Positions 6,795 through 22,836 of a stretch of DNA of 41,411 bases are shown piece by piece. The stretch comes from Candidatus Woesearchaeota archaeon (GTDB taxonomy: Archaea > Nanobdellota > Nanobdellia > Woesearchaeales > JAADFO01), in the NCBI GenBank assembly GCA_016926055.1, contig JAFGPE010000101.1, positions 1 to 41,411 on the forward strand, in the 5' to 3' direction. Every line of letters begins with the position of its first letter. Position 1 is the stretch's first letter. Position numbers and translations under genes: made by a program. The notes beneath the pieces are model-generated. The model did no database searches and was not told where the DNA came from. It saw nothing but the letters and a program-made list of their open reading frames with translations.

Positions 6795-8170
6795 GATTTC
6801 TCTTTACACTTCCCAGGTTTGAAAAAGACACGAACCCTCCGCAAGGAATAAGCTATATTGCGGCAGTTTTGAGAAATGCTGGCCACCATGTTGAGATTCT
6901 CGACCCAACCTTCAAGGGGTTTGGCTATGCAAAAAAAGGCCTGATTGAGAAGGATTATGATGTTCTGGGAATTAGCACATATACCAAGAATCATGAGGCT
7001 GGCTTGCTGATGGCAAAGATTGCGAAGGAGCATCACCCATCGTGCATAGTTGTTTTTGGCGGAGTCCATCCAACAATCCTGAGCGAAGAAACAATCAAGG
7101 ATGACCTTGTTGACATAGTTGTTATAGGGGAGGGAGAAGAAACCCTGCTTGAGTTGGCAGAGCGGCTCGAGAAAAAAAAGGAACTCAAGGGCGTGAAGGG
7201 AATTCTATACAAAAAAAACAAAAAGGTTTTTAGAAACCCGCCAAGGCCCCTTATTGAGAACTTAGATGCCCTGCCATTTCCGGCAAGAGACCTTCTTCCG
7301 ATGCATGAGTATCTCAATGCAAAGCTTGGCAGGGCTGCTTGGGCAGTAAGGCAGCCCGCAACTTCAATGGTTTCGTCGAGAGGATGCCCTTTTCGCTGCA
7401 CCTATTGCTCTTCCCACCTGATTTTCGGGAGAAGGGTCAGGTTCAGGTCGCCCCAGAACATCATAGATGAAATAAAGTTCTTAAAAAAGGAATACGGCTT
7501 GAAGGGGCTCACCTTTGTTGATGACACCTTCACGCTTAATAAGAAATTAGTGACTGAATTCTGCGGTCTCCTGCTAAAGGAAAAAATCAAAGTTGACTGG
7601 GTTTGCAACGGAAGGGTCGATACTGTCTCAAAGGAAATGTTGCGGCTGATGAAGAAGGCAGGATGCAAGGTAATAGCCTTCGGTGTCGAGTCAGGAAACC
7701 AGAGAATACTTGATGACATACTCCACAAGGATATAACTCTTGAACGGGTCGAAAGAGCATTCAGGTGGTGCAGGGAAGTAGGGATAAAGACAGATGCATA
7801 CTTCATGCTTGGCATCCCCGGAGAGACCTTGGCAGATATGAAACAATCCATACGCTTTGCAAAGAAAATAAAGGCAGATGTTGCGAATTTTGCCGTGACA
7901 AATCCTTTGCCGAAAACAGAGCTTTACGATATCGCAAAAAAATACGGAAAGATAACTGCTAGGCGCTACAGTGACTTCGATTACATGAAACGGTCTGTTT
8001 TTGTGTCGGATACATTGAATCCCAGACTGATAGAGAAGATGCAGAGGCAGGCAAACAGAAGGTTTTATCTAAACATAGGATATGTCTGGAGGCAGCTGTT
8101 CTCCATAAGAAGCCTCTCTGATTTAAGAAATAAGTTCAATGGCTTTTTAATGGTGTTGAAGAGACAATGA
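6791..8170 (+). CDS. B12-binding (class B) radical SAM enzyme, paralogue A
   Basis: N-terminal B12-type Rossmann ('DVLGISTYT...VVFGGVHPT') and CX3CX2C 'SRGCPFRCTYC'. GTG 6791 overlaps the upstream TGA and aligns with the N-termini of paralogues B and C. Alternative ATG at 6776. Confidence 0.85.
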   Translation: MRFLFTLPRFEKDTNPPQGISYIAAVLRNAGHHVEILDPTFKGFGYAKKGLIEKDYDVLGISTYTKNHEAGLLMAKIAKEHHPSCIVVFGGVHPTILSEETIKDDLVDIVVIGEGEETLLELAERLEKKKELKGVKGILYKKNKKVFRNPPRPLIENLDALPFPARDLLPMHEYLNAKLGRAAWAVRQPATSMVSSRGCPFRCTYCSSHLIFGRRVRFRSPQNIIDEIKFLKKEYGLKGLTFVDDTFTLNKKLVTEFCGLLLKEKIKVDWVCNGRVDTVSKEMLRLMKKAGCKVIAFGVESGNQRILDDILHKDITLERVERAFRWCREVGIKTDAYFMLGIPGETLADMKQSIRFAKKIKADVANFAVTNPLPKTELYDIAKKYGKITARRYSDFDYMKRSVFVSDTLNPRLIEKMQRQANRRFYLNIGYVWRQLFSIRSLSDLRNKFNGFLMVLKRQ

Positions 8171-8183
8171 TTTCTTAAGAAAT
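8170..8183. terminator. perfect 14-nt palindrome spanning the two convergent stop codons
   Basis: 'atttcttaagaaat' lies between and over the stops of 6791..8170 (+) and 8175..9623 (-). A terminator function is a guess. Confidence 0.2.
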
Positions 8184-9623
8184 AAACCTTCTTGCCACCG
8201 GTCGAAAAACAAATCCGGGATGCTTCAGAAAAATCCTGAACATCATCAGCCACTTAAGCGGGGATGTGCTTGCGAGAACTCTTCCAAACACGCTCACCAT
8301 GATTCTAGACCATCTTTCAGAGCGCTTTCGGTAAAGATAGCGAAGAACTTTCTTCGGGATAAATGGAATCTGTGCAAGCTGGATAATCCATTCTCCCATG
8401 GAAATCTTCTTCTTATGAACGCGCGTATCCCCTCCCATGGTGATAGAAATACCCCTTCTGTGAGCTTCTTCAGTCAATACATATCTCGGAAAGAATGTGA
8501 GATAGAACATGTTCACTGTAAAGGGATGTGGGAGGCTCAAGACAGTGTCAACGGTCTCAGAAACATCTTGCTCATCTTCAAAAGGATTTTCAGTTATTAC
8601 ATCATAGGTAACCATGATTCCTTTCTTGGAAAATGCTCGTGCCAGAGAGATTAGATTTTCTTTGTTGAAATAGCGATGAAAAAGCTTTGAGGTTCTGGGC
8701 GAAGCACTCTGTATGCCGATGGAAATCGAAACGCACTTTGCTTTTTGCAAAACCTCTGCTACTCTGTCTAAATCCATCCCCTTCAGGGTTATGGGTGTGG
8801 CGAGGCAGCTGAACGGTAAGTTAATCTTCTTTTTGTAACTTTTGAGAAATGCCACGAGCCAGCTGTAGTCAGTGAGGAAATCCTCGTCTTCGAACATCAC
8901 CGTATCGATTCTATCGCGAACATGGCGAAGCTCTGCAAGCACAACCGAGGATTTCCTCCTTCTTACAAATTTTCTTCCAAATTTTCCACTGAATCTCTGA
9001 AGAAGAGGATTTACGCAGTAGGCGCAGCTATATGGGCAGCCGAACGAGGTGAATGTCTGATAGCGCACCACTGGACCTACCTTGCGAGGTACTTCTGAGG
9101 TTTTCTTTATTTTACCTTTTACAATGACCGTATCCTCGATGATACCATATCTCGGATAAGGGAACTTTGTTACGTCTTCAGTGAACCAGAAGGCATTGTC
9201 TCTTGGAAAAACCCCTTTCGGGGGCGTCTTTCCTTTCATTAGCTGCTCCACCAGTGAAAGAAGAGATTCTTCACCGGCTCCCCTTATTATGAAATCCGCG
9301 AAAGTTGCACATTCTTCAGGCATGATTGTTGGATGGATGCCACCCACAACAACGAATGCTCCGCTCTTCTTGACAGCCTTTGCTAACTTTCTTGTATCTT
9401 CAAGATAGGGAGTCATGAAGCTGATTCCGACAACATCTCCTTTCTGTGGATGAAAGTCATTGACAAATGAAGCAATGGTTGCACTTGGCATTTTGCGCTT
9501 GACATTAGCGTATCGTTCTAAAAAATAAAGGGAGACCTTATGTCCCTTTGATCTCAGGAATTCGGCAATATGCCTGATTCCCCATGCAATCTCGTTTTCA
9601 AAAGCTACCAGTGCAATTCTCAT
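8175..9623 (-). CDS. B12-binding (class B) radical SAM enzyme, paralogue B (divergent)
   Basis: 'VVGISFMTP...VVVGGIHPT' and CX3CX2C 'SFGCPYSCAYC'. Confidence 0.8.
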   Translation of the reverse strand: MRIALVAFENEIAWGIRHIAEFLRSKGHKVSLYFLERYANVKRKMPSATIASFVNDFHPQKGDVVGISFMTPYLEDTRKLAKAVKKSGAFVVVGGIHPTIMPEECATFADFIIRGAGEESLLSLVEQLMKGKTPPKGVFPRDNAFWFTEDVTKFPYPRYGIIEDTVIVKGKIKKTSEVPRKVGPVVRYQTFTSFGCPYSCAYCVNPLLQRFSGKFGRKFVRRRKSSVVLAELRHVRDRIDTVMFEDEDFLTDYSWLVAFLKSYKKKINLPFSCLATPITLKGMDLDRVAEVLQKAKCVSISIGIQSASPRTSKLFHRYFNKENLISLARAFSKKGIMVTYDVITENPFEDEQDVSETVDTVLSLPHPFTVNMFYLTFFPRYVLTEEAHRRGISITMGGDTRVHKKKISMGEWIIQLAQIPFIPKKVLRYLYRKRSERWSRIMVSVFGRVLASTSPLKWLMMFRIFLKHPGFVFRPVARRFIS

Positions 9624-11816: not shown

Positions 11817-13619
11817 ATGAGCGGGATAACAATACTCCTATTCTTCATTTACACATATGGATTGGGCTATTCTCTGCTCAGGTTTGTGAAGGAGGAAGAG
11901 GCTTTCTGGGAGAGGCAGATTATGAGGGCAGGTATAGGCCTTGGAGCATTTATTGTTCTGGGGCTTTTGATGAATCTCTTAAGAATACCTCTCGACTGGA
12001 AAATATTCCTTGTCCTGAGCTTGGCTTTCCCCGTCTATGACTTGATAAAAAAGAAAGGAATGACAACTCCTGATTTAAGACCGACAAAAAACAATCTCAT
12101 TATCCTTGTTGTCCTCGTTTTGTTTTTTGCTACACTTCACATGTACGCTAAAGGCTCATTTGTTTATCCCTACTTTGAGGATGATGACCCGTGGCACCAT
12201 GCCGCGGGCATGAAGTATGTGGCCATTGAAAAGAATCTTTTTCCGCCTTTGAATACTTTGATGTACATCGACCCTTATCCTCCGGCATACGATATGGTGA
12301 TGGGCATACTGAACCAGACATCCTCGTCTGTAATGTGGACTCTGAAGTTCTTTAACTCGCTAATAATATCGTTGAGCATAGTTTTCTTCTACTTCTTTGC
12401 AAAACGCTTCATGAACAATAGCAGAAGGGCACTATTTTCAGCGTTTGCCCTGGCCGCAATACCTTGCTTCCTGAGTCATTTCATATGGTCAATGGCACTC
12501 ACAGTGCCGATGTATTTTGTGGCGTTCTACTCAATAGAGATGATGAAGCGTGATAGAAAATGGCTTATTCCATCAATAATAATGAGTGCGGCAACTCTTA
12601 CGATATCGCCTTCCCACAGCGCTTACTTTGGAATATTGCTGTTCTTTTATGCAATAACAAGATGCGTTCTGGAGAAAAAGATTGTCAAGAACCTTTTCTT
12701 GGTTGGGATATTCGGAATTGTGCTTTCCCTTTTCTTGTGGTGGGGACCAATGATGGTTAAGTACGGAGTATCAGGCTTTTTCAGCTCGACAATAAATGTT
12801 CAGGGAGGGGACACCATTTTTTCTGTGGCAGGCTCAGCAGACAGGATATACTCGTTTAATGACTTTTTTATTGCTAAAAAGCAGAACATGATAAACAATC
12901 CAATAGGAGTAGGGATTTTCCTGTCAACCCTTGCCATAATCTCAATGATATCCGTATTATCAAAATGGAAATCCCTGAAAAAAGAAAGCAATCACTGGAT
13001 TGCCATCGGAGCAGCATGGTTTCTCATCATGCTATATTTTGTGAATGCAACCCCTTATCCTGTGAAGATAACCCCTTTTAGGGCATGGATGGTTTTCGCG
13101 ATTCCTGTAGCAATTGTTTCAGCAGAAGGCCTAGATTTCCTGACGGGTATTGGAAAAAAAGCAGGCATTCCGCCGTTAATAATAATTGCATTGGCTGTAT
13201 TCGGAATAATAATGACATCTGCTGTCCAGAAGTATGCGGTCAACACCGCAAATTGGTCTCCGGGCCTGGGCTGGTACTCATATCCTGAAGTATTGAGTTA
13301 TGAATACCTAAGGGAGCTCCCATACAATGCTGCAGTCTTCACTTTTACAGACAATCTTTTCGTCATAAGCTATGACAAATACAGCTGCGAATGGTGCCCC
13401 GATATAGATGAATACAGAAAGACAGCTTTTGATAGGACAGCTGTCGAGCTCAATTCATGGCTGAAGAGCAAAAAATATGAATACCTGCTTATAGATGGCA
13501 GAACGCTGAGGAATTTTGGAATAAACGAAACAACGATAAAAGCCCAAGAACTTGTTTCTTCAGATTTATTTATCCCCGTTAAGCAGTCTGAATCGTTTCT
13601 GGCATTAAGGGTTGTCTAG
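11817..13619 (+). CDS. putative GT-C fold membrane glycosyltransferase (ArnT/PMT/STT3-like architecture)
   Basis: 600 aa, >=10 hydrophobic helices, acidic loop 'YFEDDDPWHH' after the early helices, soluble C-terminal ~120 aa. Divergent from a polyprenyl-P-sugar synthase. No WWDYG motif seen. Confidence 0.5.
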   Translation: MSGITILLFFIYTYGLGYSLLRFVKEEEAFWERQIMRAGIGLGAFIVLGLLMNLLRIPLDWKIFLVLSLAFPVYDLIKKKGMTTPDLRPTKNNLIILVVLVLFFATLHMYAKGSFVYPYFEDDDPWHHAAGMKYVAIEKNLFPPLNTLMYIDPYPPAYDMVMGILNQTSSSVMWTLKFFNSLIISLSIVFFYFFAKRFMNNSRRALFSAFALAAIPCFLSHFIWSMALTVPMYFVAFYSIEMMKRDRKWLIPSIIMSAATLTISPSHSAYFGILLFFYAITRCVLEKKIVKNLFLVGIFGIVLSLFLWWGPMMVKYGVSGFFSSTINVQGGDTIFSVAGSADRIYSFNDFFIAKKQNMINNPIGVGIFLSTLAIISMISVLSKWKSLKKESNHWIAIGAAWFLIMLYFVNATPYPVKITPFRAWMVFAIPVAIVSAEGLDFLTGIGKKAGIPPLIIIALAVFGIIMTSAVQKYAVNTANWSPGLGWYSYPEVLSYEYLRELPYNAAVFTFTDNLFVISYDKYSCEWCPDIDEYRKTAFDRTAVELNSWLKSKKYEYLLIDGRTLRNFGINETTIKAQELVSSDLFIPVKQSESFLALRVV

Positions 13620-15046
13620 TTCTTCTTGGGAAGGAATGATTTGACTAGTTCGATTTCTTCATTCTTGAAACACCTTGTCATAAGCAATATCAAGAAATAA
13701 AGCGCCATTGCGAGAGGGATTATTATCAAAATATGCAGATTCCTGAGATAATACACAAAAAATGCCATGGCTGCCCCTGCAATCAGAGGTTTATAGCTTA
13801 ACTTGAGAAGATTCAGGCCGAAGCGGTTTTTCTGACAGAACATGAGAAGCAAAGCGAAGTTAATAATTTCTGTAATTACAGTTGCAACGGCAGCACCCAT
13901 GTAGCTGTACTTTGGTATGAACACCAGATTAAGTGTGATGTTTGCCAAAACACATACGCCTGCAGAAAGAGTGAATAGCTTCTCCTTTCCTATTGAATAA
14001 AGAAGATATCCCATGATGTAGTTTATGAAGACGAAAAACTCGGCCCATATCAATATCCTGAGAACACCTGTTGAGTTCAAAAAGCTGTCCTTGTATATGA
14101 AATATATTATCCTGTCTGCGAGAAGTGTGCATCCTATCGCCATAGGTATAGCCAGCATAATTAAGTACAGGACGATTTTTCCAAACAGCACTTTTAACAT
14201 TTTCCTGTTTTCCTTAAATAAGCGGGACATTACAGGATATGTGACGAATATGACTAGCTGCGGTATGAAGCCCAGAGCTTCCACAAGCTTGTATGCAGCG
14301 CTAAACCAGCCAACAGCTTCATAACTTTTCATCATGGAGAGCATTACTGTGCTAATTTTAAAATAAAAAATCACAAACAACGTCGTAAACCAAAAGGGAA
14401 TGGAAACCTTCACCATCCTTTTCATAAAGGGAATATCGAAGCAGAACCTTGCCTTTACAAACCTCTTCGAGGCAATTCTGGCAGCGGCCAGGCTCGAGAT
14501 TAGCTGAGAGAAAACAAGTACAAGCAAAAACAGCAAAAGACTTTTCCATTTATATAGAACGAGAATCCCCGCGCCGAATGCAATACTCCTTTCTATTACA
14601 ATCAGCAGAGAAACATACTGCATCTTCTCAAATGCCCTGAACAGCGTCACAAAAAGATTCGACAAGTTTTCAAACAAAATAACCGTTCCTGCCAGAAGAA
14701 CAATCAACCGTACATCGTTTGTTTTTTTGACAAAAAATGTGCTTATGAAAGTTATTGCAAGCATAATGACCATTAGGCTTAGTTTCAGGGTGAATACATT
14801 TGTAAAATATTTTTCAGCTTTTTTATGATTCTTGGCAATTTCCCTTATTGCCCAGTTCGTCGTCCCGAGATCCGAGAAGATTGAGAAAATATATGCGAAC
14901 GCGAATGCAAAAGAATACTTCCCCAGGCCAACATCTCCAAGGTATCTTGCAACAAAGATTATCAGGAAAAATGACAAAACCTTGCCATATAGTTCTGAGA
15001 AAAACATGAAGCCGGTATTTTTTGCAATTTCCTTGCTTAATGCCAT
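13616..15046 (-). CDS. Wzx-like flippase / polysaccharide biosynthesis protein (MOP superfamily), second copy
   Basis: 476 aa polytopic membrane protein. Its stop overlaps the stop of 11817..13619 in 'CTAG'. Confidence 0.7.
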   Translation of the reverse strand: MALSKEIAKNTGFMFFSELYGKVLSFFLIIFVARYLGDVGLGKYSFAFAFAYIFSIFSDLGTTNWAIREIAKNHKKAEKYFTNVFTLKLSLMVIMLAITFISTFFVKKTNDVRLIVLLAGTVILFENLSNLFVTLFRAFEKMQYVSLLIVIERSIAFGAGILVLYKWKSLLLFLLVLVFSQLISSLAAARIASKRFVKARFCFDIPFMKRMVKVSIPFWFTTLFVIFYFKISTVMLSMMKSYEAVGWFSAAYKLVEALGFIPQLVIFVTYPVMSRLFKENRKMLKVLFGKIVLYLIMLAIPMAIGCTLLADRIIYFIYKDSFLNSTGVLRILIWAEFFVFINYIMGYLLYSIGKEKLFTLSAGVCVLANITLNLVFIPKYSYMGAAVATVITEIINFALLLMFCQKNRFGLNLLKLSYKPLIAGAAMAFFVYYLRNLHILIIIPLAMALYFLILLMTRCFKNEEIELVKSFLPKKN

Positions 15047-15080: not shown

Positions 15081-16490
15081 TCATTCAGTCCTGCCCTTGT
15101 CCATCTTCAGCACGTGCCTCAAACCGACTGCCCTGAGAACGAAGTTCTTGAACCCCATCAATGAGCGTATCTGCTTCAGCCTGTGGATGATGAAACTGGG
15201 ATGCTTGATGTACTGCCACCTCATGAATCTCAGAAGCTCCCTGTATGCATAGCCAAATGCCTCGACTCTTTCTTCTGCTGGAAAATCGTCAGTTTCAAAA
15301 ATGGGCTGCGGCTTGTCTGTAAGGTGAGGACTCCATTTGTCAACATCTTTGATTAGCCATCTTCCGTTCTTGCTAATCCAATCATATATCTCTGTTCCAG
15401 GATAAGGAACAAGCATTCCAAAATAAGCTCCTCCGTTCAACTCAAGCTTTTTCATGAATGCAACTGAATCCTTGACAGTTTCAAACGTATCGCCCGGGTT
15501 ACCTATCATGAAGAATCCGCCAACAATGAGGCCAGCGTCCTTTGCCCATTTTACAGCCTTTTCAACCTGCTTAAGCGTAATCCCTTTCTTCATCATGTTA
15601 AGAACCCTCTGGTTCCCTGATTCTATTCCATAGTTCACTCTCTCGCAGCCTGCCCTCCTCATCTTCTTAAGAAGTCTTGGCGTTACCCTGTCCACCCGTA
15701 TGCCCACAGAGCATTCCCATTTGACATCAAGATTCTTTTTCAGCAGGATGTCACAAAAACGCTCGGCATTTTTCATGTCCAGAGTGAAAGTGTCATCAAG
15801 TATGTAAAACATGTCAGGATGATATTTCTTATTCAGGGTTTCAATCTCCCTTATTATGTTTTCAGGGCTCCGGTGGCGCCATTTGCTTCCGTGAACCGCC
15901 TTTGTGCAATACACGCACTGAAACGGGCAGCCCCTTCCTGTTACCACGCCCATCTGGCTGTATCTTGAAAGTTCATATAGCTCTCGAGGAGGAAACGGAA
16001 GAGCGTCAAGATCGTCTATTGGTGGCCTTGGCGGATTAACAACTATTTCGCCGTCTTTCCTGTATATCAAACCCTTGATTCCTTCAGGTTCTTTGTTGTC
16101 TTCCAAGGCTTCAACAAGTTCCATAATGGTATACTCCCCTTCACCGTAAACACCAAAATCGATAAACTTATTTTTTTCCAAAGCCTTTTCTTTTACTATG
16201 GAGACATAGGCTCCTCCAACCACCGTTTTGGCAGAGGTATGCTTCTTCGCTAGCTCAACAACCCTGTTGGCTTCTTTGGATGTAAATGTTAGGGCAGTAA
16301 CACCGATAAGGTCGAATTTATTCTTCTTGAACAGTTTGACTAGTTGGCTAAATCCCATATCAGAAGCCTTCATATCTATGATTCTCACGCTATGGTTTTT
16401 TTTCATAAGCATGGCTGCCATATACCCTATTCCCAAAGGGGGGTGCTTCATCTCAGCCTCGCATAAAGGACTTATAAACAAAACATTCAT
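15081..16490 (-). CDS. B12-binding (class B) radical SAM enzyme, paralogue C (close to A)
   Basis: 'GRGCPFQCVYC'. 'DDLDALPFPPREL' matches 'ENLDALPFPARDL' of paralogue A. The ATG at 16490 ('MNVLFIS') aligns with the paralogues. The track start 16508 is GTG. Confidence 0.85.
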   Translation of the reverse strand: MNVLFISPLCEAEMKHPPLGIGYMAAMLMKKNHSVRIIDMKASDMGFSQLVKLFKKNKFDLIGVTALTFTSKEANRVVELAKKHTSAKTVVGGAYVSIVKEKALEKNKFIDFGVYGEGEYTIMELVEALEDNKEPEGIKGLIYRKDGEIVVNPPRPPIDDLDALPFPPRELYELSRYSQMGVVTGRGCPFQCVYCTKAVHGSKWRHRSPENIIREIETLNKKYHPDMFYILDDTFTLDMKNAERFCDILLKKNLDVKWECSVGIRVDRVTPRLLKKMRRAGCERVNYGIESGNQRVLNMMKKGITLKQVEKAVKWAKDAGLIVGGFFMIGNPGDTFETVKDSVAFMKKLELNGGAYFGMLVPYPGTEIYDWISKNGRWLIKDVDKWSPHLTDKPQPIFETDDFPAEERVEAFGYAYRELLRFMRWQYIKHPSFIIHRLKQIRSLMGFKNFVLRAVGLRHVLKMDKGRTE

Positions 16491-16534
16491 TTCTATCCCC
16501 TCTTCCACCTAAAAAAACAGATTTGTTTTTAAAT

Positions 16535-16588: not shown

Positions 16589-17302
16589 ATGATTCGGAAA
16601 TTAGAGGAAATAAAAAAAAGGTATGACAAGAACAAGAAGGAGAGGGCTGCAGACGGCAGGATAACTAACGCATATAGGTATGTTTCAACACCCATAGTTT
16701 ACCTCCTAAGCAAGACTCCTGCGACAGGAGACCACCTCACTCTCATGGGAGTAATTTTCTCAATAGTTGCTTCATTGTCGATTGCCACAGGCAACTACGT
16801 ATATTCCATCCTCGGTGCAGTTGGCCTTCACCTGAGTTTCATCTGCGATTTATGCGATGGGGCTTTAAACAGGGCAAAGAAGATAATAAACCCCAAGGGG
16901 ATGTTCGTGGAAGAACTGGCCCATGATGTTTTCTCATTTTCTGTTATGATGGGTCTGGGTCTTAACGCATACCACCATTTTAGCGATATCAGAGTAATCT
17001 ACCTTACCTTGGCAACACTCTTTTTCATATTCATGGTAATATCGGTAGGCGGGAAGAAAGCAATGTTTGGGAAGCACTCAGGCAAAAGGCCGGTAAATAT
17101 AACTGACACAATACCTAAAAGAGGACTGAGCCGCCTGGCACTGGAGTTCATGCGTTTATTCAACGACATGCACAAGATGATATTTATCCTGCTTTTTGCA
17201 GCAATATTCGATGTAATTCATTATGCGATATTCTTCTATTGTCCGTTTTATTTTGCGATAGTGGCAGTGAAACTGTATAAGGAATACAACTCAGAATTCT
17301 AA
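16589..17302 (+). CDS. CDP-alcohol phosphatidyltransferase family membrane protein (divergent motif)
   Basis: 'DLCDGALNRAKKIINPKGMFVEELAHD' approximates D1xxD2GxxAR...GxxxD3xxxD4 (A->N, D3->E, D4 shifted by one). Several TM helices. ATG 16589 preferred over the track start 16523. Confidence 0.6.
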   Translation: MIRKLEEIKKRYDKNKKERAADGRITNAYRYVSTPIVYLLSKTPATGDHLTLMGVIFSIVASLSIATGNYVYSILGAVGLHLSFICDLCDGALNRAKKIINPKGMFVEELAHDVFSFSVMMGLGLNAYHHFSDIRVIYLTLATLFFIFMVISVGGKKAMFGKHSGKRPVNITDTIPKRGLSRLALEFMRLFNDMHKMIFILLFAAIFDVIHYAIFFYCPFYFAIVAVKLYKEYNSEF

Positions 17303-18000
17303 CATCCTTTGGCGATAATCTTCTTGGCTTTTTCCAGGTCTTCAGGGAAATCAATGTCTATGAAAAAGGATCTTCCAATATCCAGTGCAGTTATCTTTTC
17401 ACCCTTTCTTATCATTTGCCTGATGACATTAATAAAAGAAACCTGAATATCCTTTTTTGCTTCATCATTCAGTTCGCCAATCAGCTTTTCAGCACCTTTA
17501 TGAGAGAATTTAGCTATGCCTATAAACTCGCCATTATCTCTTTTTATCTTGCCCTTGTCAACATCTTTTATTATTTCATCTTGCTCAAAAACTTTCTCGG
17601 CTTCATCCCTTATGACATCTTTTTTGATTGCCAAGCAGATATCAGATTTATTCTCAAGAAGCAGGCTAATGATTTTCCTGTCGAACAATATATCTGAATA
17701 CAATAAAATGAAGCCGTCTTTCAGATAATCCCTTACTACCCAAAGCGTCATTGCGATGCCTGAAACCTCGTAGAAAGGGTTCAGCAAGCAAGTGATACCT
17801 TCTTTCTTGCATTCTTCTTCAACCTGATTAGCCAGATGGCCAGAAACAACATAAATCTCGCCAATTCCAGCAGCATTCAATGCCTCTTTCTGGAGTTTCA
17901 GGATTTTCTTTCCACTTATCTCGAGCAAGCACTGAGGCACATTCTTTGTAAGAGGCAATAGCCTTGTAGACCTTCCGGCCGCTAAAATAATCGCTTTCAT
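17299..18000 (-). CDS. nucleotidyltransferase, LicC/IPCT-like (NTP_transferase fold)
   Basis: 'MKAIILAAGRSTRLLPLT' signature and C-terminal 'FIDIDFPEDLEKA'. Its stop codon overlaps that of the convergent 16589..17302. Confidence 0.7.
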   Translation of the reverse strand: MKAIILAAGRSTRLLPLTKNVPQCLLEISGKKILKLQKEALNAAGIGEIYVVSGHLANQVEEECKKEGITCLLNPFYEVSGIAMTLWVVRDYLKDGFILLYSDILFDRKIISLLLENKSDICLAIKKDVIRDEAEKVFEQDEIIKDVDKGKIKRDNGEFIGIAKFSHKGAEKLIGELNDEAKKDIQVSFINVIRQMIRKGEKITALDIGRSFFIDIDFPEDLEKAKKIIAKGC

Positions 18001-18023
18001 TTTAATCCACGCAGTGTCTATTG

Positions 18024-18031
18024 TTTATAAA
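18024..18031 (-). promoter_or_regulatory. TATA-like box (possible internal promoter) for 17299..18000
   Basis: Palindromic 'tttataaa' centred ~27 nt upstream of the ATG at 18000. Confidence 0.35.
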
Positions 18032-18042
18032 TGTTTAGCAAT

Positions 18043-18876
18043 CTATTTTGGAGATTCGATTCTTACAACATTCTTCCTTATGTAAGCGCTGAACCTGTCT
18101 ATCAATGTAACCATCAGGACCATTATGATTAGGATTGTAAGTACCTCTCTGTTCCTAAAAAGCCTCATGCTGGTTATCAGTTCCATGCCTATTCCTCCTG
18201 CACCAACCAGACCAAGAACAGTTGCAGCTCTGAAGTTATTCTCCAAATAATAGAGCACGTAGTTAAGGAATAGGGGCTTTACCTGCGGAAATATGCCTCT
18301 CGTAATGACCTGTATCTTATTCGCTCCAGTAGACACAATCGCTTTTATGACCTCCGGGTCGGCAGTCTCTATGGCTTCTGAGAAATACCTTCCCAACGCC
18401 CCTGTCACATGGGCTGTCAAGGCGAGGACTCCCGGGAACGGACCCAGGCCAACCATTGAGACAAAGATAAGGCCCCATACAATCTCATTGATTCCCCTGC
18501 ATGTGTCGAATATTGTTCTAACTCCATGGTATATTAATTTGTTATGCATTATGTTTCGTGCAGCCAAAAAAGACAAGGGGAAGGCAATCAGGGCACCAAG
18601 AGTCGAGCCGACAATGGCCATCTGCAGGGTTTCCACAGCCTTCAGAAGAAATTTACCGAGGTTACTTATGTCAGGGGGAAACATTCTTTTTACAAAATCA
18701 GCCATGAAAGGAAAGCCCTTGACGAAATCAGAAGGGCTGAACTTTGCACCGCTTAGTGCCCAGTAGTAAATAATCACTATAAGAATCCCAATCATCAGCT
18801 TTTTGTACTTTCCCTCCACAAACATTCTTTTCAGCTTTGCTACAAAATCAGGATTGTCGCTTTTCTTTATTTTCAT
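18043..18876 (-). CDS. phnE: phosphonate-type ABC transporter permease
   Basis: 6-TM ABC permease with an EAA-type loop 'EAIETADPEVIKAIVSTGANKIQ'. Adjacent to the PhnC- and PhnD-like genes. Confidence 0.8.
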   Translation of the reverse strand: MKIKKSDNPDFVAKLKRMFVEGKYKKLMIGILIVIIYYWALSGAKFSPSDFVKGFPFMADFVKRMFPPDISNLGKFLLKAVETLQMAIVGSTLGALIAFPLSFLAARNIMHNKLIYHGVRTIFDTCRGINEIVWGLIFVSMVGLGPFPGVLALTAHVTGALGRYFSEAIETADPEVIKAIVSTGANKIQVITRGIFPQVKPLFLNYVLYYLENNFRAATVLGLVGAGGIGMELITSMRLFRNREVLTILIIMVLMVTLIDRFSAYIRKNVVRIESPK

Positions 18877-18878
18877 TT

Positions 18879-19652
18879 TCAGAAACCCGTCTTTCCGTAG
18901 AGATACCAGTCTTCAGTCTTGCCGTAGATGTCAACAATATCTTTTTCAGTAAGGTCAACTGGCTTTCCATCGAAAACAATCGTTCCGTTTTTCATTCCAA
19001 TTATTCTTGAGCCATATCTCTTGGCAAAATCAAGAAAATGCAGGCTTGTGACTAGAGTTATTCCTTTCTCATCGCATATCTTCTTGAGAAGGTCCATCAC
19101 TTCCTTCATTAGCTTCGGGTCAAGATTTGACACGGGTTCATCAGCCAATATTATGTCAGGCCTTTGGGATAGTGCCCTTGCGATAGCAACCCTCTGCTTT
19201 TGCCCGCCGCTCAGGCTAGAAACCCTGTCCTCAGCATTCTCTTCAAGGCCAACCCTCTTTAGATTCTCTCTTGCCACCCTGTAATCCTCCCTAGAGAACC
19301 TGCCAAGTATTGTCCTCACGGTGCTCATGTACTTCAGCCTGCCGTTCAGCACATTGTCAATGACAGTGTTCCTTTCAATAAGGTTGAAGTTCTGGAAAAT
19401 CATGCTGACCTTGCCCCTTATCTTCTCTGCTTTTTTTTCATGGCAATTGACGATGTCTTCACCTTCAATGAAGATTTTTCCTGTTCTTGGCTCTATCAGT
19501 CTGTTTATGCATTTGAGCAGGGTTGACTTGCCTGAGCCCGAGGAGCCGATTATAACAACACTCTCCCCTTTTTTTACATGGAGGCTGATATTTCTAAGTG
19601 CTTCTTCGCTTCTGTTCTTATACATGTGACTCAAATTTTTTATTTTTATCAT
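18879..19652 (-). CDS. phnC: phosphonate-type ABC transporter ATP-binding protein
   Basis: Walker A 'GSSGSGKSTLL', signature 'LSGGQKQRVAIARAL', Walker B 'IILADEP'. Confidence 0.8.
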   Translation of the reverse strand: MIKIKNLSHMYKNRSEEALRNISLHVKKGESVVIIGSSGSGKSTLLKCINRLIEPRTGKIFIEGEDIVNCHEKKAEKIRGKVSMIFQNFNLIERNTVIDNVLNGRLKYMSTVRTILGRFSREDYRVARENLKRVGLEENAEDRVSSLSGGQKQRVAIARALSQRPDIILADEPVSNLDPKLMKEVMDLLKKICDEKGITLVTSLHFLDFAKRYGSRIIGMKNGTIVFDGKPVDLTEKDIVDIYGKTEDWYLYGKTGF

Positions 19653-19684
19653 CCTAAAATCTCCAGTACCCTGCTTGTATCACT

Positions 19685-19741
19685 TCAGCAAATCGTTTTC
19701 AGGGCAGGATAATTGCTATGTATGTCGCTAATCAGAGCCAT
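19685..19741 (-). pseudogene. 18-codon relic resembling the N-terminus of a metallophosphoesterase
   Basis: 'aaggagga'-N3-ATG, then 'MALISDIHSNYPALKTIC*'. 'ISDIHSN' matches motif I (DxH) of calcineurin-like phosphoesterases. It lies in the 132-nt phnD-phnC spacer. Confidence 0.3.
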
Positions 19742-19784
19742 TCTCCTCCTTGAACTCTCTGCAGCTGCTAATTTCTAAAATGAA

Positions 19785-20717
19785 TTATTTTGTTGCAGAT
19801 TCAGCATTTGTTACGTCCATTCCCAGTGTTTTCGCAGTTTCCCTTATTATATCATAGTCGCTGTCAGCAACTTTCTGGTATCTTGCAATATCGCCCCAGC
19901 CATCAACCTCATTAATTGTCTGCTCATCCATTTCGACAAGGGCTTGCTGTATCTTCTGCCTTAGTTCAGCAGGCAGGCTTTTCCTCACGACTATGGGTGA
20001 GCCAGGTATTGGAGGCGACTTGAACAGTATCTTGTTGACTTTCGGGTCAATTTCTCCAGCATTAACCATTCTTTCATAGGAGTTGTCGCTGTCTGCTCCT
20101 GCATCAACGTTGCCATTTGCAATTGCGTATTCTACAGCATTATGTGTGCCGGCATAATAGCTCATGCTAAAATCCTCTTCAGGGTCAATTCCATTGTCAA
20201 TAAGCATTTTTCTCGGTATAAGGTTTCCTGATGTGGATGCCGGGTCAACAAACGCAAACTTCTTTCCCTTTAAATCAGCCAGAGTCTCTACTCCGCTGCC
20301 AGCCCTCACCACAATTATTGATTGGTACTCGGCCTTTCCATCACTTCTCCTGATGCCATTGACAATTGCCTGGGCATCTGCAACATTCGCGGCGATGATG
20401 TACGAGAACGGACCAAACCATGCCATATCAATGTGCTTTGCCCTCATGGCTTCTATCGCTGCAGTATAGTCTGATGTAACCTGTATCTCCACAGGTATGC
20501 CCAGTTTCTTAGACAGATATTCTTTTACAGGCTCATAGCTTCTCAACATTTCTTCAGCGTCATCTGCTGGAATAAGGCCCATCTTAAGAACTTTAATCTC
20601 TTCCGAAGACGTTTCATCCGATTTAATCATATTTCCTGTTGCTTTGCTTTGTCCAGAGTTGCAGCCAGTCACTAAAACAAGCATGCACACCAGCAACACT
20701 ATTGCTTCTTTTTTCAT
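19785..20717 (-). CDS. phnD: phosphonate/phosphite-family periplasmic-type substrate-binding lipoprotein
   Basis: Lipobox 'LVLVTGC'. PhnD-family core 'LKMGLIPADDAEE...MAWFGPFSYI...FVDPASTSGNLIP'. Confidence 0.8.
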   Translation of the reverse strand: MKKEAIVLLVCMLVLVTGCNSGQSKATGNMIKSDETSSEEIKVLKMGLIPADDAEEMLRSYEPVKEYLSKKLGIPVEIQVTSDYTAAIEAMRAKHIDMAWFGPFSYIIAANVADAQAIVNGIRRSDGKAEYQSIIVVRAGSGVETLADLKGKKFAFVDPASTSGNLIPRKMLIDNGIDPEEDFSMSYYAGTHNAVEYAIANGNVDAGADSDNSYERMVNAGEIDPKVNKILFKSPPIPGSPIVVRKSLPAELRQKIQQALVEMDEQTINEVDGWGDIARYQKVADSDYDIIRETAKTLGMDVTNAESATK

Positions 20718-21508
20718 ATTTTTCTCCCCTCCTGTATTTCTCCTCCAATCCTTTTAAAATCCTGAACGGTGTCGAATTCCATCCAGCCCTTCTGAATCCT
20801 GACAGCATAAATCTCCTCTTTTTTGTCAACCATCTCCTGAAAAATATCAGTAATGTAGCTTTTCTGCCATTCCTTTGTGTTCTGATACGGGTCAGTCATT
20901 TTAAGAGTTGAATTAAGCCTGTCAAAATGCTTAAGGAATGTCCTTGCTCCTTCCGGAGTGAACTTCCATAGCCCAATAAATTCACCCTGCATGTCCTTCG
21001 GAGTGCCGTCTGTGAATATGTGTTTTCCAATCTTAAGTACCCTGTTTTTCTCATCAAGAATAACATTCTCAGCTTCCCCAATGGGATGGTCTGTCCTGCC
21101 TTTATAGTATTCCTGCCAGTCGGTGTCAACAATTGATGCAATCGGCTTTCTTGATTCAAGCAATTTCTTTACGACGCTGTCTTCATACAATATATCTGAG
21201 TATGTTATAACAACATCCTCTTCATTCTTTGTTGCTTCCTCAATTTTCGGCCTTGCACACATCAATGAATGAAGAATATTGTTGTTCCAGAAGTCAGCAT
21301 TCTCAAAATAGTTGATGCCGGGGAAATTAATCTTCTCTTTCTTATACCCTCTTATCACAGATATGTCTGTTATGCCGTTATTCCTGAAAAGCTCAATTGT
21401 ATTTTGTATTATCGACTTTCCTTTTATCTTAAGCATGCATTTTGGCAAATCATCAGTCAGGGGCCTTAATCTTTTGCAAGGTCCTGCAGCAATAACTATT
21501 CCTTTCAT
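20714..21508 (-). CDS. LicC/PntC-like cytidylyltransferase (phospho-/phosphono-alcohol type nucleotidyltransferase)
   Basis: 'MKGIVIAAGPCKRLRPLT', 'NNILHSL', and C-terminal 'MEFDTVQDFKRI', which parallels the LicC C-terminus. 4-nt overlap with phnD. Confidence 0.65.
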   Translation of the reverse strand: MKGIVIAAGPCKRLRPLTDDLPKCMLKIKGKSIIQNTIELFRNNGITDISVIRGYKKEKINFPGINYFENADFWNNNILHSLMCARPKIEEATKNEEDVVITYSDILYEDSVVKKLLESRKPIASIVDTDWQEYYKGRTDHPIGEAENVILDEKNRVLKIGKHIFTDGTPKDMQGEFIGLWKFTPEGARTFLKHFDRLNSTLKMTDPYQNTKEWQKSYITDIFQEMVDKKEEIYAVRIQKGWMEFDTVQDFKRIGGEIQEGRKI

Positions 21509-22047
21509 TTTTTCCTTCCTCCATAAATCCTGAATACTTTTCTGATTATGTTCTCAGTTGAGAGCTTGTCATAAAAAGGGGGCTGTGCAATCTTTCCTCC
21601 TATCTTTTTCACATATTCAGCCCCTGGAATTTTCTTCCAGTTTGAGCCGAAGACAAGAATAATTTCAGCATTCCTGAATTGCTTGTGGATGTTTTTCAGG
21701 TTTTCGGTAGGGTCAATATCATCCTGCGACATCACCATGTCAACACATCTCAAAGAGGATAGTATTGCCTCTCTTTCCTTAAGGCCGGCTATCGGCTCCT
21801 TCTTGTATGATTTTATTGCGTCATCACTAAGCACGCCGCATATGTGAAAGTCTCCAAGGGTATTTGCATTTTCCAGCAGCCGGAGATGGCCATAATGAAA
21901 CAAGTCACCTGTAACGACAGAGTAAACAATCCTGTTTATCTTCTGCTTTTCAATACCAACAATTTCGCCTTCCTTTATTCCTGAATCCTTGGGAATAGTT
22001 ACACAGAGCTGTCCGTTTGACTTGTTCAGCCAGACTGTTCTTTTCAT
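21505..22047 (-). CDS. HxGH cytidylyltransferase (TagD/ECT-like) with ~37-aa AbrB/SpoVT-like N-terminal extension
   Basis: 'VVTGDLFHYGHLRLLENA'. N-terminal 'NGQLCVTIPKDSGIKEGEIVGIE'. TAATG stop/start overlap upstream and 4-nt overlap downstream. Confidence 0.7.
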   Translation of the reverse strand: MKRTVWLNKSNGQLCVTIPKDSGIKEGEIVGIEKQKINRIVYSVVTGDLFHYGHLRLLENANTLGDFHICGVLSDDAIKSYKKEPIAGLKEREAILSSLRCVDMVMSQDDIDPTENLKNIHKQFRNAEIILVFGSNWKKIPGAEYVKKIGGKIAQPPFYDKLSTENIIRKVFRIYGGRKK

Positions 22048-22805
22048 TATTTCTCCCCTACAAGTATCACGTTCTTTACATCAATAAGGCAATCATCTTT
22101 CGTTATTTTCATATTGTATGCTTTCCTGAAAACATCAGAGCCATTGACGTGCATATCGTATATCTTTTTCTGTCTTGATTTGGGCAGACCGCTGTTATTC
22201 AGCCAATCCCTGACACTGAAGTTCCTCATCATATGCGTATGAAGCGTGATTTTTTTGAAACCGCCCTTTTTCATCATCCTTGTCAAGTCATCCTCAAGAA
22301 ATGTTAGCCTTTTTTCCTTAAGCCTGAATATCTTAACGTAGTCTTGCCTGACACCAGGAACCGGCGGAACCCCTTCACTTAAAATCATTTTTCCGCCTTT
22401 CTTCAGTATTCTGTAGCATTCATTCATTGCTTTTTGGGTGTTTTCAAGTATGTGGTGGAAAACCATTCTTGCAGTTATCTTATCAAAGACACCTTCATAA
22501 AACGTTGGCACCCTGATGTCCCTTTTTATAAAATATTTATTGCCTTGCCAGTTGCTGTGCTCGAGCATGTCCTGGGACTTGTCCAACCCTATGACTTCCT
22601 TTACAATGGGAGCTATTGCGTGAGCCACAATGCCCGTTCCTGTGCCAACATCTAGGACCAAGTCTGTTTTTTTGAAATTTCCCGCGGACACAAACGAATT
22701 CAGATATGAGTTGTCCTTTACCCACTTAAGGTTGTTGTACTTCTGAGACCTGACTTTCCAGAATCTCTCTTCCTGACTGGATGATTCCTTCCTTCCACTT
22801 TTCAT
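22047..22805 (-). CDS. class I SAM-dependent methyltransferase (Methyltransf_11-like)
   Basis: Motif I 'VLDVGTGTGIVA' and 'LKKGGKMIL'. Confidence 0.8.
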   Translation of the reverse strand: MKSGRKESSSQEERFWKVRSQKYNNLKWVKDNSYLNSFVSAGNFKKTDLVLDVGTGTGIVAHAIAPIVKEVIGLDKSQDMLEHSNWQGNKYFIKRDIRVPTFYEGVFDKITARMVFHHILENTQKAMNECYRILKKGGKMILSEGVPPVPGVRQDYVKIFRLKEKRLTFLEDDLTRMMKKGGFKKITLHTHMMRNFSVRDWLNNSGLPKSRQKKIYDMHVNGSDVFRKAYNMKITKDDCLIDVKNVILVGEK

Positions 22806-22808
22806 TCT

Positions 22809-22825
22809 ACTAGTACCACTAGTAC
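22809..22825. promoter_or_regulatory. tandem 'ACTAGTAC' repeats between the TATA box and start codon (candidate operator)
   Basis: 'actagtac-c-actagtac'. Each unit contains the palindrome ACTAGT. Confidence 0.3.
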
Positions 22826-22828
22826 TAA

Positions 22829-22836
22829 TATATAAA
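22829..22836 (-). promoter_or_regulatory. TATA-like box for the 22805..18043 operon
   Basis: Plus-strand 'tatataaa' centred ~27 nt upstream of the ATG at 22805. Confidence 0.4.

Follow-up and report, generated by a model that had tools for sequence, protein, structure and literature searches.

A PhnDCE importer among nucleotidyltransferase genes of a woesearchaeal surface-glycan island: a candidate salvage route for phosphonate head groups

Phosphoenolpyruvate (PEP) mutase, Ppm, is the current marker for organisms that produce or display phosphonates, and the ATP-binding cassette (ABC) transporter PhnCDE is the marker for phosphonate catabolism or phosphorus scavenging. Contig JAFGPE010000101.1 from a metagenome-assembled genome (MAG) of Candidatus Woesearchaeota (DPANN), whose complete 41,411 nt are referred to here as the window, raises the question of what such an importer does when its genes form an operon with genes for nucleotidyltransferases and a methyltransferase and lie beside a gene for a divergent membrane protein of the CDP-alcohol phosphotransferase (CDP-OH) family. 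A first-pass annotation of this sequence had proposed that the genes serve to import, activate and attach phosphonate head groups. This proposal is supported by the gene neighbourhoods of relatives, in which the importer and Ppm occur as alternatives; the relatives, however, point to hydroxyethylphosphonate (HEP) or methylphosphonate (MPn) and not to 2-aminoethylphosphonate (AEP). The reading favoured here, which we regard as reasonably probable, is that a salvage variant of the phosphonyl-tailoring (Pnt) pathway is encoded here: an imported phosphonate would be activated with cytidine triphosphate (CTP) and attached to the cell surface.

In the proposed pathway, the substrate-binding lipoprotein PhnD (19785..20717, minus strand; TIGR03431; lipobox LVTGC) would capture a small extracellular phosphonate, which would be imported by the ATPase PhnC (18879..19652, minus strand; TIGR02315) and the permease PhnE (18043..18876, minus strand; TIGR01097). 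The PntC/LicC-type nucleotidyltransferase NT3 (20714..21508, minus strand; Pfam, with a match to LicC), possibly also a second enzyme of this type, NT7 (17299..18000, minus strand; matches to LicC and to Treponema PntC, Tde-PntC), and the Fom1-like HxGH-type (PF01467) cytidylyltransferase CT2 (21505..22047, minus strand; Pfam), would join the phosphonate with CTP, yielding a cytidine monophosphate (CMP)-phosphonate. With a phosphonate that is taken up ready-made, neither a kinase nor Ppm would be required. The CDP-OH-family protein (16589..17302, plus strand) could then move the phosphonyl group to a membrane-embedded hydroxyl of a lipid or lipid-linked glycan, and flippases and glycosyltransferases of the surrounding surface-glycan island would carry the product to the surface. 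The class I S-adenosylmethionine (SAM)-dependent methyltransferase MT1 (22047..22805, minus strand; Pfam Methyltransf_11/25/23), and perhaps a B12-binding radical SAM enzyme, may modify the head group. We infer the ligand, the use of CTP, the acceptor and the division of labour among the three nucleotidyltransferases from the sequences.

Importer and PEP mutase genes around one nucleotidyltransferase

NT3 was used to scan genome and metagenome collections, and exact-protein look-ups were added; the 40 loci obtained in this way were mapped by tblastn. The first-pass annotation had made its proposal depend on the conservation of the gene linkage in relatives, and nucleotidyltransferase genes are linked to phnDCE in about 23 independent loci of DPANN archaea and bacteria of the candidate phyla radiation (CPR), that is, in two domains of life and with shuffled gene order, which is far beyond chance. 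Orthologues of NT3 with 65-80% identity accompany phnD or phnDCE in 18 loci, the window included (the others are L001, L003-L006, L008, L009, L014, L015, L019-L022, L024, L030, L036 and L038). The order NT3-PhnD-MT1-PhnC-PhnE-NT7 is found in L001, L005, L009, L014 and L036, the order PhnDCE-NT3-NT7 or PhnDCE-NT7-NT3 in L004 and L006; CT2 lies upstream in L005, L008, L009 and L015, and NT7 follows phnE in almost every importer locus, with or without a CDP-OH gene.

Another five loci (L002, L010, L011, L025 and L026) combine NT3 orthologues with ppm and ppd genes, to which a gene for an Fe-alcohol dehydrogenase is added in three (L002, L010 and L011) and a gene for methylphosphonate synthase (MPnS), directly beside NT3, in two (L002 and L010). 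The order in L002 is sulfatase-sulfatase-unk287-NT3-MPnS-CT2-CyT~Ppm-Ppd-Fe-alcohol dehydrogenase, where unk287 denotes a protein of unknown kind and CyT~Ppm a fusion of a cytidylyltransferase domain with Ppm. L010 contains NT~Ppm-MPnS-NT3, with a nucleotidyltransferase domain (NT) fused to Ppm, along with two sulfatase genes, an alcohol dehydrogenase gene, ppd and CyT~Ppm, L011 has the order Ppm~NT-Ppd-...-NT3-alcohol dehydrogenase, and in L025 and L026 the order is unk287-HIT-NT3-radical SAM-CyT~Ppm-Ppd. In none of the mapped loci do phnDCE and ppm occur together. The module unk287-HIT-NT3 precedes PhnDCE-NT7 in L022 and L024 and radical SAM-CyT~Ppm-Ppd in L025 and L026, the importer locus L014 and the de novo locus L002 have a CDP-OH gene, two sulfatase genes, unk287 and NT3 in common, and orthologues of CT2, about 70% identical, are found in importer as well as de novo loci. 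Since NT3 orthologues are found with either phnDCE or ppm-ppd-alcohol dehydrogenase(-mpnS), and never with both, the importer most likely replaces de novo phosphonate synthesis, and this either/or pattern is the strongest evidence for the substitution. At 65-80% identity, NT3 enzymes are expected to keep their substrate class, which would then be the products of Ppm, Ppd and alcohol dehydrogenase with or without MPnS, namely HEP or MPn; NT3 is 65-75% identical to the nucleotidyltransferases that adjoin MPnS in L002 and L010.

The MPnS of L010 matches Nitrosopumilus MPnS with 531 bits, and both it and the MPnS of L002 have the His/Gln/His ligands as well as Phe162 and Ile184, where the chain of the HEP dioxygenase HEPD has Tyr and Gly. 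As Born et al. 2017 reportedly described, the Phe162/Ile184 pair separates MPnS from HEPD. The two genes (L010:5574-6917 and L002:10899-12134) come from a Nanoarchaeota MAG and a MAG labelled Methanosarcinales, and an O2-dependent MPnS is unexpected in these lineages, which are usually regarded as anaerobic.

In the window itself, Pfam searches of all open reading frames (ORFs) of at least 110 aa detected neither Ppm, Ppd, an alcohol dehydrogenase, MPnS or a kinase nor C-P lyase, PhnW/X or a PtxD-type dehydrogenase, and tblastn of the window at E<=0.01 likewise detected no Ppm, Ppd, alcohol dehydrogenase or MPnS. No match to PF13714, the EDKxxxxxNS-type PEP mutase family, was found across the 41 kb. 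The statement of the annotation that the window lacks catabolic genes, PEP mutase and a LicA-like kinase agrees with the Pfam search and, as regards PEP mutase, also with tblastn. The sulfatase, HIT, unk287 and TagF-like genes that other loci carry were not detected in the window by tblastn either.

The linkage was also followed in the reverse direction, by sampling five further contexts of orthologues from the PhnD clade. Nucleotidyltransferase genes are adjacent in four of the five and catabolic genes in none, and, with the exception of L041, whose visible part contains no polysaccharide gene, all lie among surface-polysaccharide genes. The patescibacterial locus L041 reads CT-PhnDCE-NT (CT, cytidylyltransferase); L043, from a bacterium, contains a cytidylyltransferase gene, two methyltransferase genes and a nucleotidyltransferase gene, followed by PhnDCE, a further nucleotidyltransferase gene and a CDP-OH gene; L044 has a sulfatase gene and a sulfatase~NT fusion followed by PhnDCE; L045/46 has NT3, PhnD, a methyltransferase, Metallophos, PhnC, PhnE, NT7 and CDP-OH; in L042, from Nealsonbacteria, PhnDCE lies beside Wzx, Wzy and Bac_transf genes, with the upstream side truncated. 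PhnD orthologues of about 70% identity with the same cytidylyltransferase, nucleotidyltransferase and CDP-OH neighbours are thus present in CPR bacteria (L041, L042 and L043), which indicates that the module is common to DPANN archaea and CPR bacteria. Elsewhere, the cluster has a TagF-like Glyphos_transf gene as its neighbour in L015, and sulfatase and HIT genes in other loci.

Two features of these neighbourhoods are recorded in addition. In the fusion protein of L044 (L044:6093-7982; 629 aa), which is encoded immediately upstream of PhnDCE, a sulfatase-family domain is joined to a nucleotidyltransferase resembling NT3; this fusion would tie the recurrent cytoplasmic 'sulfatase' proteins functionally to nucleotidyl activation. 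Furthermore, a radical SAM/SPASM enzyme is found repeatedly, in de novo clusters as well as in importer clusters (L026:1120-2421; L002:17419-18336; L011:12459-14147; L041:1-1141; L044:12505-13653), and in L025/26 it lies between NT3 and CyT~Ppm, the position held by MPnS in L002 and L010.

The PhnD pocket and the activating enzymes

All three transporter components of the window exceed their NCBIfam equivalog cut-offs (PhnD 279 vs 261 bits, PhnC 324 vs 266 bits and PhnE 296 vs 217 bits). The nearest solved relatives of PhnD in the PDB are phosphite binders, with PtxB (5o2j) at 1.7e-50 compared to 5.6e-28 for E. coli PhnD. The binding pocket was compared, residue by residue, in an alignment of the window protein with seven orthologues, which was extended to the 50 nearest cluster representatives at 50% identity. 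PhnD and the seven orthologues have kept every residue with which E. coli PhnD and PtxB hold the phosphorus head (Y47, Y93, S127-T128-S129 and H157 in E. coli numbering; PMC5700983, PMC12718374). Specificity for phosphite depends on a strictly conserved capping tyrosine, Y208 in Te_PtxB, which is braced by Asp22 and provides a P-H...pi contact (PMC5700983). In the window protein and its seven orthologues, however, the PtxB motif PQYPW is replaced by PGSPI, so that the tyrosine becomes serine, and Asp22 is replaced by alanine; none of the 50 representatives has the tyrosine cap, and serine is the commonest residue in that column. The amine-binding pair of E. coli PhnD, Glu177 and Asp205, is replaced by Asn(Thr) and Ser; the residue immediately preceding the 177 column is an invariant Asp. 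The equivalent pair of GpxB, Arg223/Thr247 (PMC12718374), is absent as well, with Asn and Ser found there instead. As the tyrosine cap, the amine pair and the GpxB pair are all replaced, the pocket is probably enlarged, polar and of an uncharacterised type.

Judged by these residues, the pocket of PhnD is not a phosphite pocket, and a phosphite importer was ruled out on this basis despite PtxB being the best PDB match; the annotation had named a pocket matching phosphite or hypophosphite binders as the finding that would speak against it, and the exchanges of Tyr for Ser and of Asp22 for Ala are not of that kind. The same residues bear on the idea that PhnDCE takes up phosphite or phosphonates as a phosphorus source and lies in the glycan island by coincidence. 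Phosphorus acquisition is the classical role of PhnCDE, and the close similarity to PtxB would suit it. The idea is nevertheless quite improbable, since the capping Tyr208/Asp22 pair is lost, no PtxD-type dehydrogenase, C-P lyase or PhnW/X gene is found in the window or in any related locus, the linkage to nucleotidyltransferase genes outlasts the shuffling of gene order in about 23 loci, and the NT3 and PhnD genes of the window overlap by 4 nt. The clade of this PhnD is large, comprising 764 homologues at E<=1e-40, which are spread over DPANN and CPR; the best 120 of the 764 are all at least 68% identical.

The nucleotidyltransferases group with enzymes that activate head groups. The nearest solved relative of NT3 is LicC (7.6e-11), with the next best match at 1e-5 and sugar-1-phosphate enzymes at least five orders of magnitude weaker than LicC, and NT7 matches LicC at 1.3e-14 and Tde-PntC at 8.6e-14, with the next best match at 8e-10. 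With the nucleotidyltransferase domain of an NT-Ppm fusion, both share 32% identity over their full length (NT3, 261 aa, E 1e-40; NT7, 3e-27). CT2, which scores 47.1 bits in Pfam against a gathering threshold of 21 and carries the HxGH motif as FHYGH, has the cytidylyltransferase domain of Fom1 (5x3d) as its best solved relative (4.9e-13), followed by human ECT (1.3e-12) and TagD (3.6e-8), and, with 28% identity, it also matches the corresponding domain of a CyT-Ppm fusion. The Fom1 domain acts on HEP and produces CMP-HEP. The annotation had regarded a placement with the sugar-1-phosphate enzymes RmlA or GlmU as incompatible with its proposal; the three enzymes instead group with LicC, PntC, Fom1 and Ppm-fused domains.

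The PntC/LicC class (PF12804/PF00483) was examined for the signature GxG(T/S)Rx4-8PK, which includes the catalytic Arg and Lys. The lysine of the PK that ends this signature is reportedly essential in relatives. In NT3 (AAGPCKRLRPLTDDLPK), both the Arg and the PK are present. In NT7 (AAGRSTRLLPLTKNVPQ), PK has become PQ, and the lysine is replaced by glutamine in all NT7 orthologues (for instance L005:14145-14831 and L014:13116-13808); catalysis by NT7 may be changed, or the nearby lysine of an LTK motif may stand in. The substrate amine is contacted by Glu104 in PntC and Asp105 in LicC (PMC6697681). This residue is Tyr in NT3, NT7 and all Ppm-fused archaeal nucleotidyltransferases, in what is the single reliably aligned column of the pocket, the position of D192/E196 being ambiguous. 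The YWDN segment of LicC aligns with SYITD in NT3 and SFIN in NT7, and its tryptophan is not conserved.

These comparisons also bear on the possibility that no C-P compound is involved at all and that an imported phosphate monoester, such as phosphoethanolamine, phosphocholine or glycerol-1/3-phosphate, is converted into a CDP-alcohol and transferred by a CDP-OH- or TagF-type enzyme in a Lic- or teichoic-acid-like pathway. GpxB, a glycerol-phosphate binder, belongs to the PhnD family (PMC12718374), the tail positions of PhnD hold the small polar residues Ser, Asn and Asp, CT2 matches ECT and TagD, a TagF-like Glyphos_transf gene lies beside the L015 cluster, NCBI names NT3 'phosphocholine cytidylyltransferase family', and a kinase would be equally unnecessary. 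However, PhnD lacks the Arg223/Thr247 signature of GpxB and scores above the PhnD equivalog cut-off, and the exchange of the amine-contacting D105/E104 for Tyr in both NT3 and NT7, together with the loss of the LicC tryptophan, speaks against a choline or ethanolamine head group. The salvage of phospho-alcohols would also leave unaccounted for that NT3 and its accessory genes alternate between phnDCE and ppm-ppd-alcohol dehydrogenase-mpnS; we consider it unlikely, but the one alternative to be taken seriously. Another pathway, that for O-methyl phosphoramidate (MeOPN), was considered because one NT3 homologue bears the JGI name 'L-glutamine-phosphate cytidylyltransferase' and because of a paper on Borgs (PMC12660748); it was rejected, as no glutamine kinase (Cj1418-like) or gamma-glutamyl-CDP-amidate hydrolase (Cj1417-like) domains were found in the window.

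With the salvage of a phosphonate as the preferred reading, the cargo is probably HEP or MPn, and AEP is less likely. The relatives' pathways use an alcohol dehydrogenase and not a transaminase, and MPnS is present in two of the five; CT2 resembles Fom1; and the residue that contacts the amine in PntC and LicC is Tyr, which is a weak argument as it rests on the one reliably aligned column. In PhnD, the tail pocket with its polar Ser, Asn and Asp suits a hydroxyl, as in HEP, or an amine more than a methyl group alone. Roughly apportioned, HEP stands first, with clearly less than an even chance, other compounds including phosphate esters come second, and MPn and AEP follow close behind on equal terms. 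Taken as a whole, the more specific proposal that this DPANN/CPR operon scavenges HEP or MPn made by the community and displays it on the cell's own lipids or glycans is tentative, falling slightly short of an even chance.

The candidate transferase and known head-group pathways

The membrane protein encoded at 16589..17302, with at least four predicted transmembrane or hydrophobic segments, reaches 18.4 bits with the CDP-OH family in Pfam, where the threshold is 22, matches the NCBIfam family AIPS at 1.8e-9 and is homologous to a protein of L014 at 1e-13. For the single protein, the family call of the annotation was thus sub-threshold, but a profile built from six cluster-linked members, the window protein included, matches AF2299 at 3.8e-27, IPCT/DIPPS at 2.4e-13, phosphatidylinositol-phosphate synthases at about 1e-9 (7e-10) and human CPT1/CEPT1 at about 1e-5, which bears the assignment out. 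AF2299 is a CDP-alcohol phosphotransferase. Compared with the canonical signature D1xxD2GxxARx8GxxxD3xxxD4, the window protein has DLCDGALNRx8GMFVEELAH(D), in which D1, D2, G, R and G are kept, Ala is replaced by Asn, D3 by Glu and D4 by His. Cluster-linked homologues (L002, L003, L009, L014, L024, L043 and L045) have the signature DxxDGxx[AN]Rx8Gxxx[DE] with H, S, G, N or D at the D4 position; on this evidence they form a divergent subfamily, and the variation at D4 hints at a change in the catalytic arrangement or in the donor.

Genes of the CDP-OH family lie next to the cluster in ten loci (window, L002, L003, L009, L014, L021, L024, L043 and L045/46) and are known companions of ppm clusters (PMC8942020). 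The membrane protein is therefore regarded as a candidate transferase for the CMP-activated head group: since a CMP-phosphonate is chemically analogous to a CDP-alcohol, passing a phosphonyl group on to an acceptor that is a lipid or is linked to one would be a natural reaction for it. Together with NT7, the same protein has a possible explanation of a different kind, namely as an IPCT/DIPPS module that makes di-myo-inositol phosphate independently of the transporter. Both proteins do match NF041135 and 4mnd weakly, but the scores are 70.7 and 24 bits against an NF041135 cut-off of 580, the two genes are convergent and unfused, no inositol-1-phosphate synthase gene is found in the window, the constant position of NT7 after phnE does not depend on a CDP-OH gene, and AF2299 is a much better profile match than DIPPS. 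The region 16589..18000 is thus not a standard module of this type, a possibility that the annotation itself had raised, and the explanation is scarcely credible.

The best-known counterpart of the proposed salvage pathway is the bacterial Pnt pathway, which comprises Ppm, Ppd and AEPT, PntC and a transferase of the LicD or CDP-OH type (Rice et al. 2019, PMC6697681; Li & Horsman 2022, PMC8942020) and in which CMP-AEP is made by LicC-like enzymes (PMC6697681). The two have in common LicC-like (PF12804) and HxGH (PF01467) nucleotidyltransferases for making CMP-phosphonates, transfer to glycans or lipids, CDP-OH genes as frequent companions and surface-polysaccharide surroundings. The window cluster, however, lacks PEP mutase, decarboxylase and transaminase genes and has the PhnDCE importer in their place, its relatives point to HEP or MPn and not to AEP, and the hosts are DPANN archaea and CPR bacteria. 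Published inventories begin from ppm (PMC6697681, PMC8942020, PMC9381506), so that a cluster of this kind would be missed. A second counterpart is formed by the mpnS clusters of Nitrosopumilus and other marine microbes, whose accessory genes have been read as machinery for (methyl)phosphonate esters (Lockwood et al. 2022, PMC9381506). L002 and L010 resemble these clusters, with ppm, ppd, Fe-alcohol dehydrogenase, MPnS, 'choline kinase'/nucleotidyltransferase and arylsulfatase-like genes, whereas the window has the importer instead of the biosynthetic, sulfatase, HIT and unk287 genes. Clusters of this kind are reportedly also the subject of Metcalf et al. 2012.

As an importer, the system resembles PhnCDE, PtxABC, HtxBCDE and GpxBCD of the PhnT family (TC 3.A.1.9) in its three components, equivalog scores and head-binding residues, but its partners are anabolic (nucleotidyltransferases, transferase and methyltransferase) and not catabolic (C-P lyase, PhnWX and PtxD), and its tail pocket has Ser/Asn(+Asp) where PtxB has Tyr, E. 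coli PhnD Glu/Asp and GpxB Arg/Thr. With the Lic phosphocholine pathway (LicB-LicA-LicC-LicD) it would share import, cytidylyl activation and glycan attachment, and NT3 and NT7 are LicC homologues. In contrast to Lic, Pfam detected no LicA kinase, LicB permease or LicD among the window ORFs, the importer is a phosphonate-family ABC transporter, and the amine-contacting residue of LicC is not conserved. With Fom1 (CyTase-Ppm) and Fom3, which methylates CMP-HEP, the cluster shares a cytidylyltransferase nearest to the Fom1 domain and nearby B12-radical SAM enzymes; here, however, CT2 stands alone, there are no homologues of Fom4 or FomD, the radical SAM enzyme is not assignable to Fom3, and the context is glycan synthesis and not an antibiotic pathway. 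In diatoms, uptake of 2-AEP followed by its cytidylyltransferase-dependent, non-catabolic incorporation into phospholipids has been proposed (PMC9765203), but that route is eukaryotic and depends on endocytosis and general Kennedy-pathway enzymes, with no dedicated operon. Full-text searches of open-access papers found no Pnt-type cluster with an ABC importer in the place of PEP mutase, nor any such cluster for DPANN or CPR genomes; while the parts (PhnCDE, PntC/Fom1-type activation and CDP-OH transfer) are known, the importer in the place of PEP mutase appears to be new.

Several observations weigh against a phosphonate salvage pathway. The absence of ppm covers this contig alone, and ppm may be encoded elsewhere in the genome. 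The tail pocket of PhnD is unlike that of any characterised member, with Ser at the position of PtxB Tyr208, E. coli Asp205 and GpxB Thr247 and with Asn, next to an invariant Asp, at that of Glu177, and its family includes the glycerol-phosphate binder GpxB (PMC12718374). CT2 is equally close to ECT and Fom1, NT7 has PQ where its class has the catalytic PK, the last canonical Asp of the CDP-OH signature is missing from the window protein, and the model gives no reason for keeping three nucleotidyltransferases. Some NT3 orthologues also lie in unrelated contexts (L007, L017 and L018). In these three loci and in L029, NT3 orthologues (72%) occur on their own, next to ThiF, ThiI, TtuA and SAMP genes; neither phosphonate nor transporter genes lie within 9 kb of them.

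If the proposed pathway is correct, genomes without ppm may carry C-P compounds on the cell surface, and both marker shortcuts would fail: a widespread PhnD clade would serve biosynthesis and not nutrition. It would be the first anabolic role of PhnCDE and the first Ppm-independent route to phosphonate-decorated cells, and it would constitute a non-degradative sink for dissolved phosphonates, with the C-P bond uncleaved, in the phosphonate/methylphosphonate cycle. DPANN and CPR are two radiations of ultra-small, host-dependent cells; the distribution of the module implies sharing across domains, and the pathway would offer a concrete case of ultra-small symbionts that depend on community metabolites. 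It would also point to enzymes that could carry out the activation and transfer of HEP or MPn in mpnS clusters, steps whose enzymes are still missing.

The operon and its surroundings in the glycan island

The eight genes named by the first-pass annotation were all recovered with the boundaries and overlaps that it had given. The MT1 and CT2 genes share a single base (TAATG), and the CT2 and NT3 genes overlap by 4 nt, as do NT3 and PhnD; judged from this overlap, NT3 is translationally coupled to phnD. A tight coupling is further suggested by relatives, in which MT1 and a metallophosphoesterase gene lie inside the transporter operon. At the other end, the genes for NT7 and the membrane protein are convergent, with overlapping stop codons (TAG at 17301-17299 for NT7 and TAA at 17300-17302 for the membrane protein). 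The TATA-like box described by the annotation is also present: TTTATATA, at 22829..22836 on the minus strand, lies 23 nt upstream of the ATG of MT1 and is likely the promoter of a near-leaderless transcript. The seven-gene run on the minus strand was correct in its genes and order, but it is the distal portion of a larger co-directional block of 11 genes, which extends from 26417 to 17299.

The best solved relatives of MT1 are the uncharacterised methyltransferases BH2331 and YcgJ, phosphoethanolamine N-methyltransferases match weakly, and no specific support was found for the N-methylation of the head group that the annotation had suggested. Orthologues with 67-73% identity are present in L001, L005, L009, L014 and L036. 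The usual slot of MT1 in relatives is between phnD and phnC, which in L045/46 is taken by a methyltransferase of the same size with the same Pfam domains. MT1 occurs in importer-type loci only and is absent from all five de novo loci; importer loci without it are L003, L004, L006, L015, L022 and L024. Two specific assignments of MT1 were rejected. An ArsM-type arsenic methyltransferase, with PhnD as an ArrX/AioX-type protein, is contradicted by a cysteine count of only two, the lack of an ArsM motif and NCBIfam scores far below the cut-offs, and a DhpI-type phosphonate O-methyltransferase gave no PDB match.

Between phnD and phnC, the window has a spacer of 132 nt (19653-19784), which, on the evidence of the residual coding sequence, is the deletion scar of a metallophosphoesterase gene. 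The scar (19657..19744, minus strand) retains codons 1-18 (MALISDIHSNYPALKTI) and the last 17 (..KRFAEVIQAGYWRF) in different reading frames, and these pieces are 61% and 53% identical to the N- and C-termini, respectively, of the Metallophos protein of L045. An intact Metallophos gene is found in L045/46, in the order PhnD-methyltransferase-Metallophos-PhnC.

A gene for a B12-binding radical SAM enzyme (15081..16508, minus strand; Pfam B12-binding and Radical_SAM) adjoins the CDP-OH gene, an arrangement that is repeated in L003. The enzyme is a possible tailoring partner. Paralogues with 29-34% identity are found near the cluster in L003, L009 and L015, and in L041 a gene with these Pfam domains is likewise nearby. 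All NCBIfam matches of the enzyme are sub-threshold, for example 156 vs 600 bits for the PhpK P-methyltransferase family, and its assignment as Fom3 or PhpK was rejected, the similarity being generic and nothing more specific.

Together with MT1, this enzyme invites a further explanation, in which imported phosphite is nucleotidylylated and then P-methylated by MT1 or the B12-radical SAM enzyme, giving CMP-methylphosphonate without the O2-dependent MPnS. The overall similarity of PhnD to PtxB, the restriction of MT1 to importer-type loci, the sub-threshold similarity to PhpK-type enzymes and the position of NT3 beside MPnS in relatives would all be in line with such a route, which would be an O2-independent way to methylphosphonate. 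The tyrosine cap for P-H...pi binding is absent, however, many importer loci have no MT1, and the radical SAM matches are generic. To our knowledge, P-methylation by a class I SAM-dependent enzyme has no precedent, and we consider this route very improbable.

The operon lies within a single surface-glycan island (0.8-31.7 kb; Pfam), as is also evident from the Wzx/MOP-type flippase gene beside it (13616..15046, minus strand; Pfam Polysacc_synt), a family that adjoins the cluster in L014 and L045 as well. The island contains genes for sugar-nucleotide dehydratases, epimerases, aminotransferases, six glycosyltransferases, two Wzx-type flippases and several methyltransferases, in addition to three B12-binding radical SAM enzymes. 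Archaeal markers, a diphthamide synthase and an archaeosine-type TGT, are encoded at 36-40 kb (Pfam), and tRNA and Rfam scans of the window found nothing. At 11817-13619 on the plus strand, the window encodes a protein of 600 aa for which ten or more transmembrane segments are predicted and which has no match in Pfam; a relationship to PMT_2, which adjoins the cluster in L005, L009 and L014, was rejected, as no similarity was detected. The three B12-binding radical SAM enzymes of the island are encoded at 6776-8170 (plus strand), 8175-9623 (minus strand) and 15081-16508 (minus strand), and the first and the last of them are paralogues with 37% identity.

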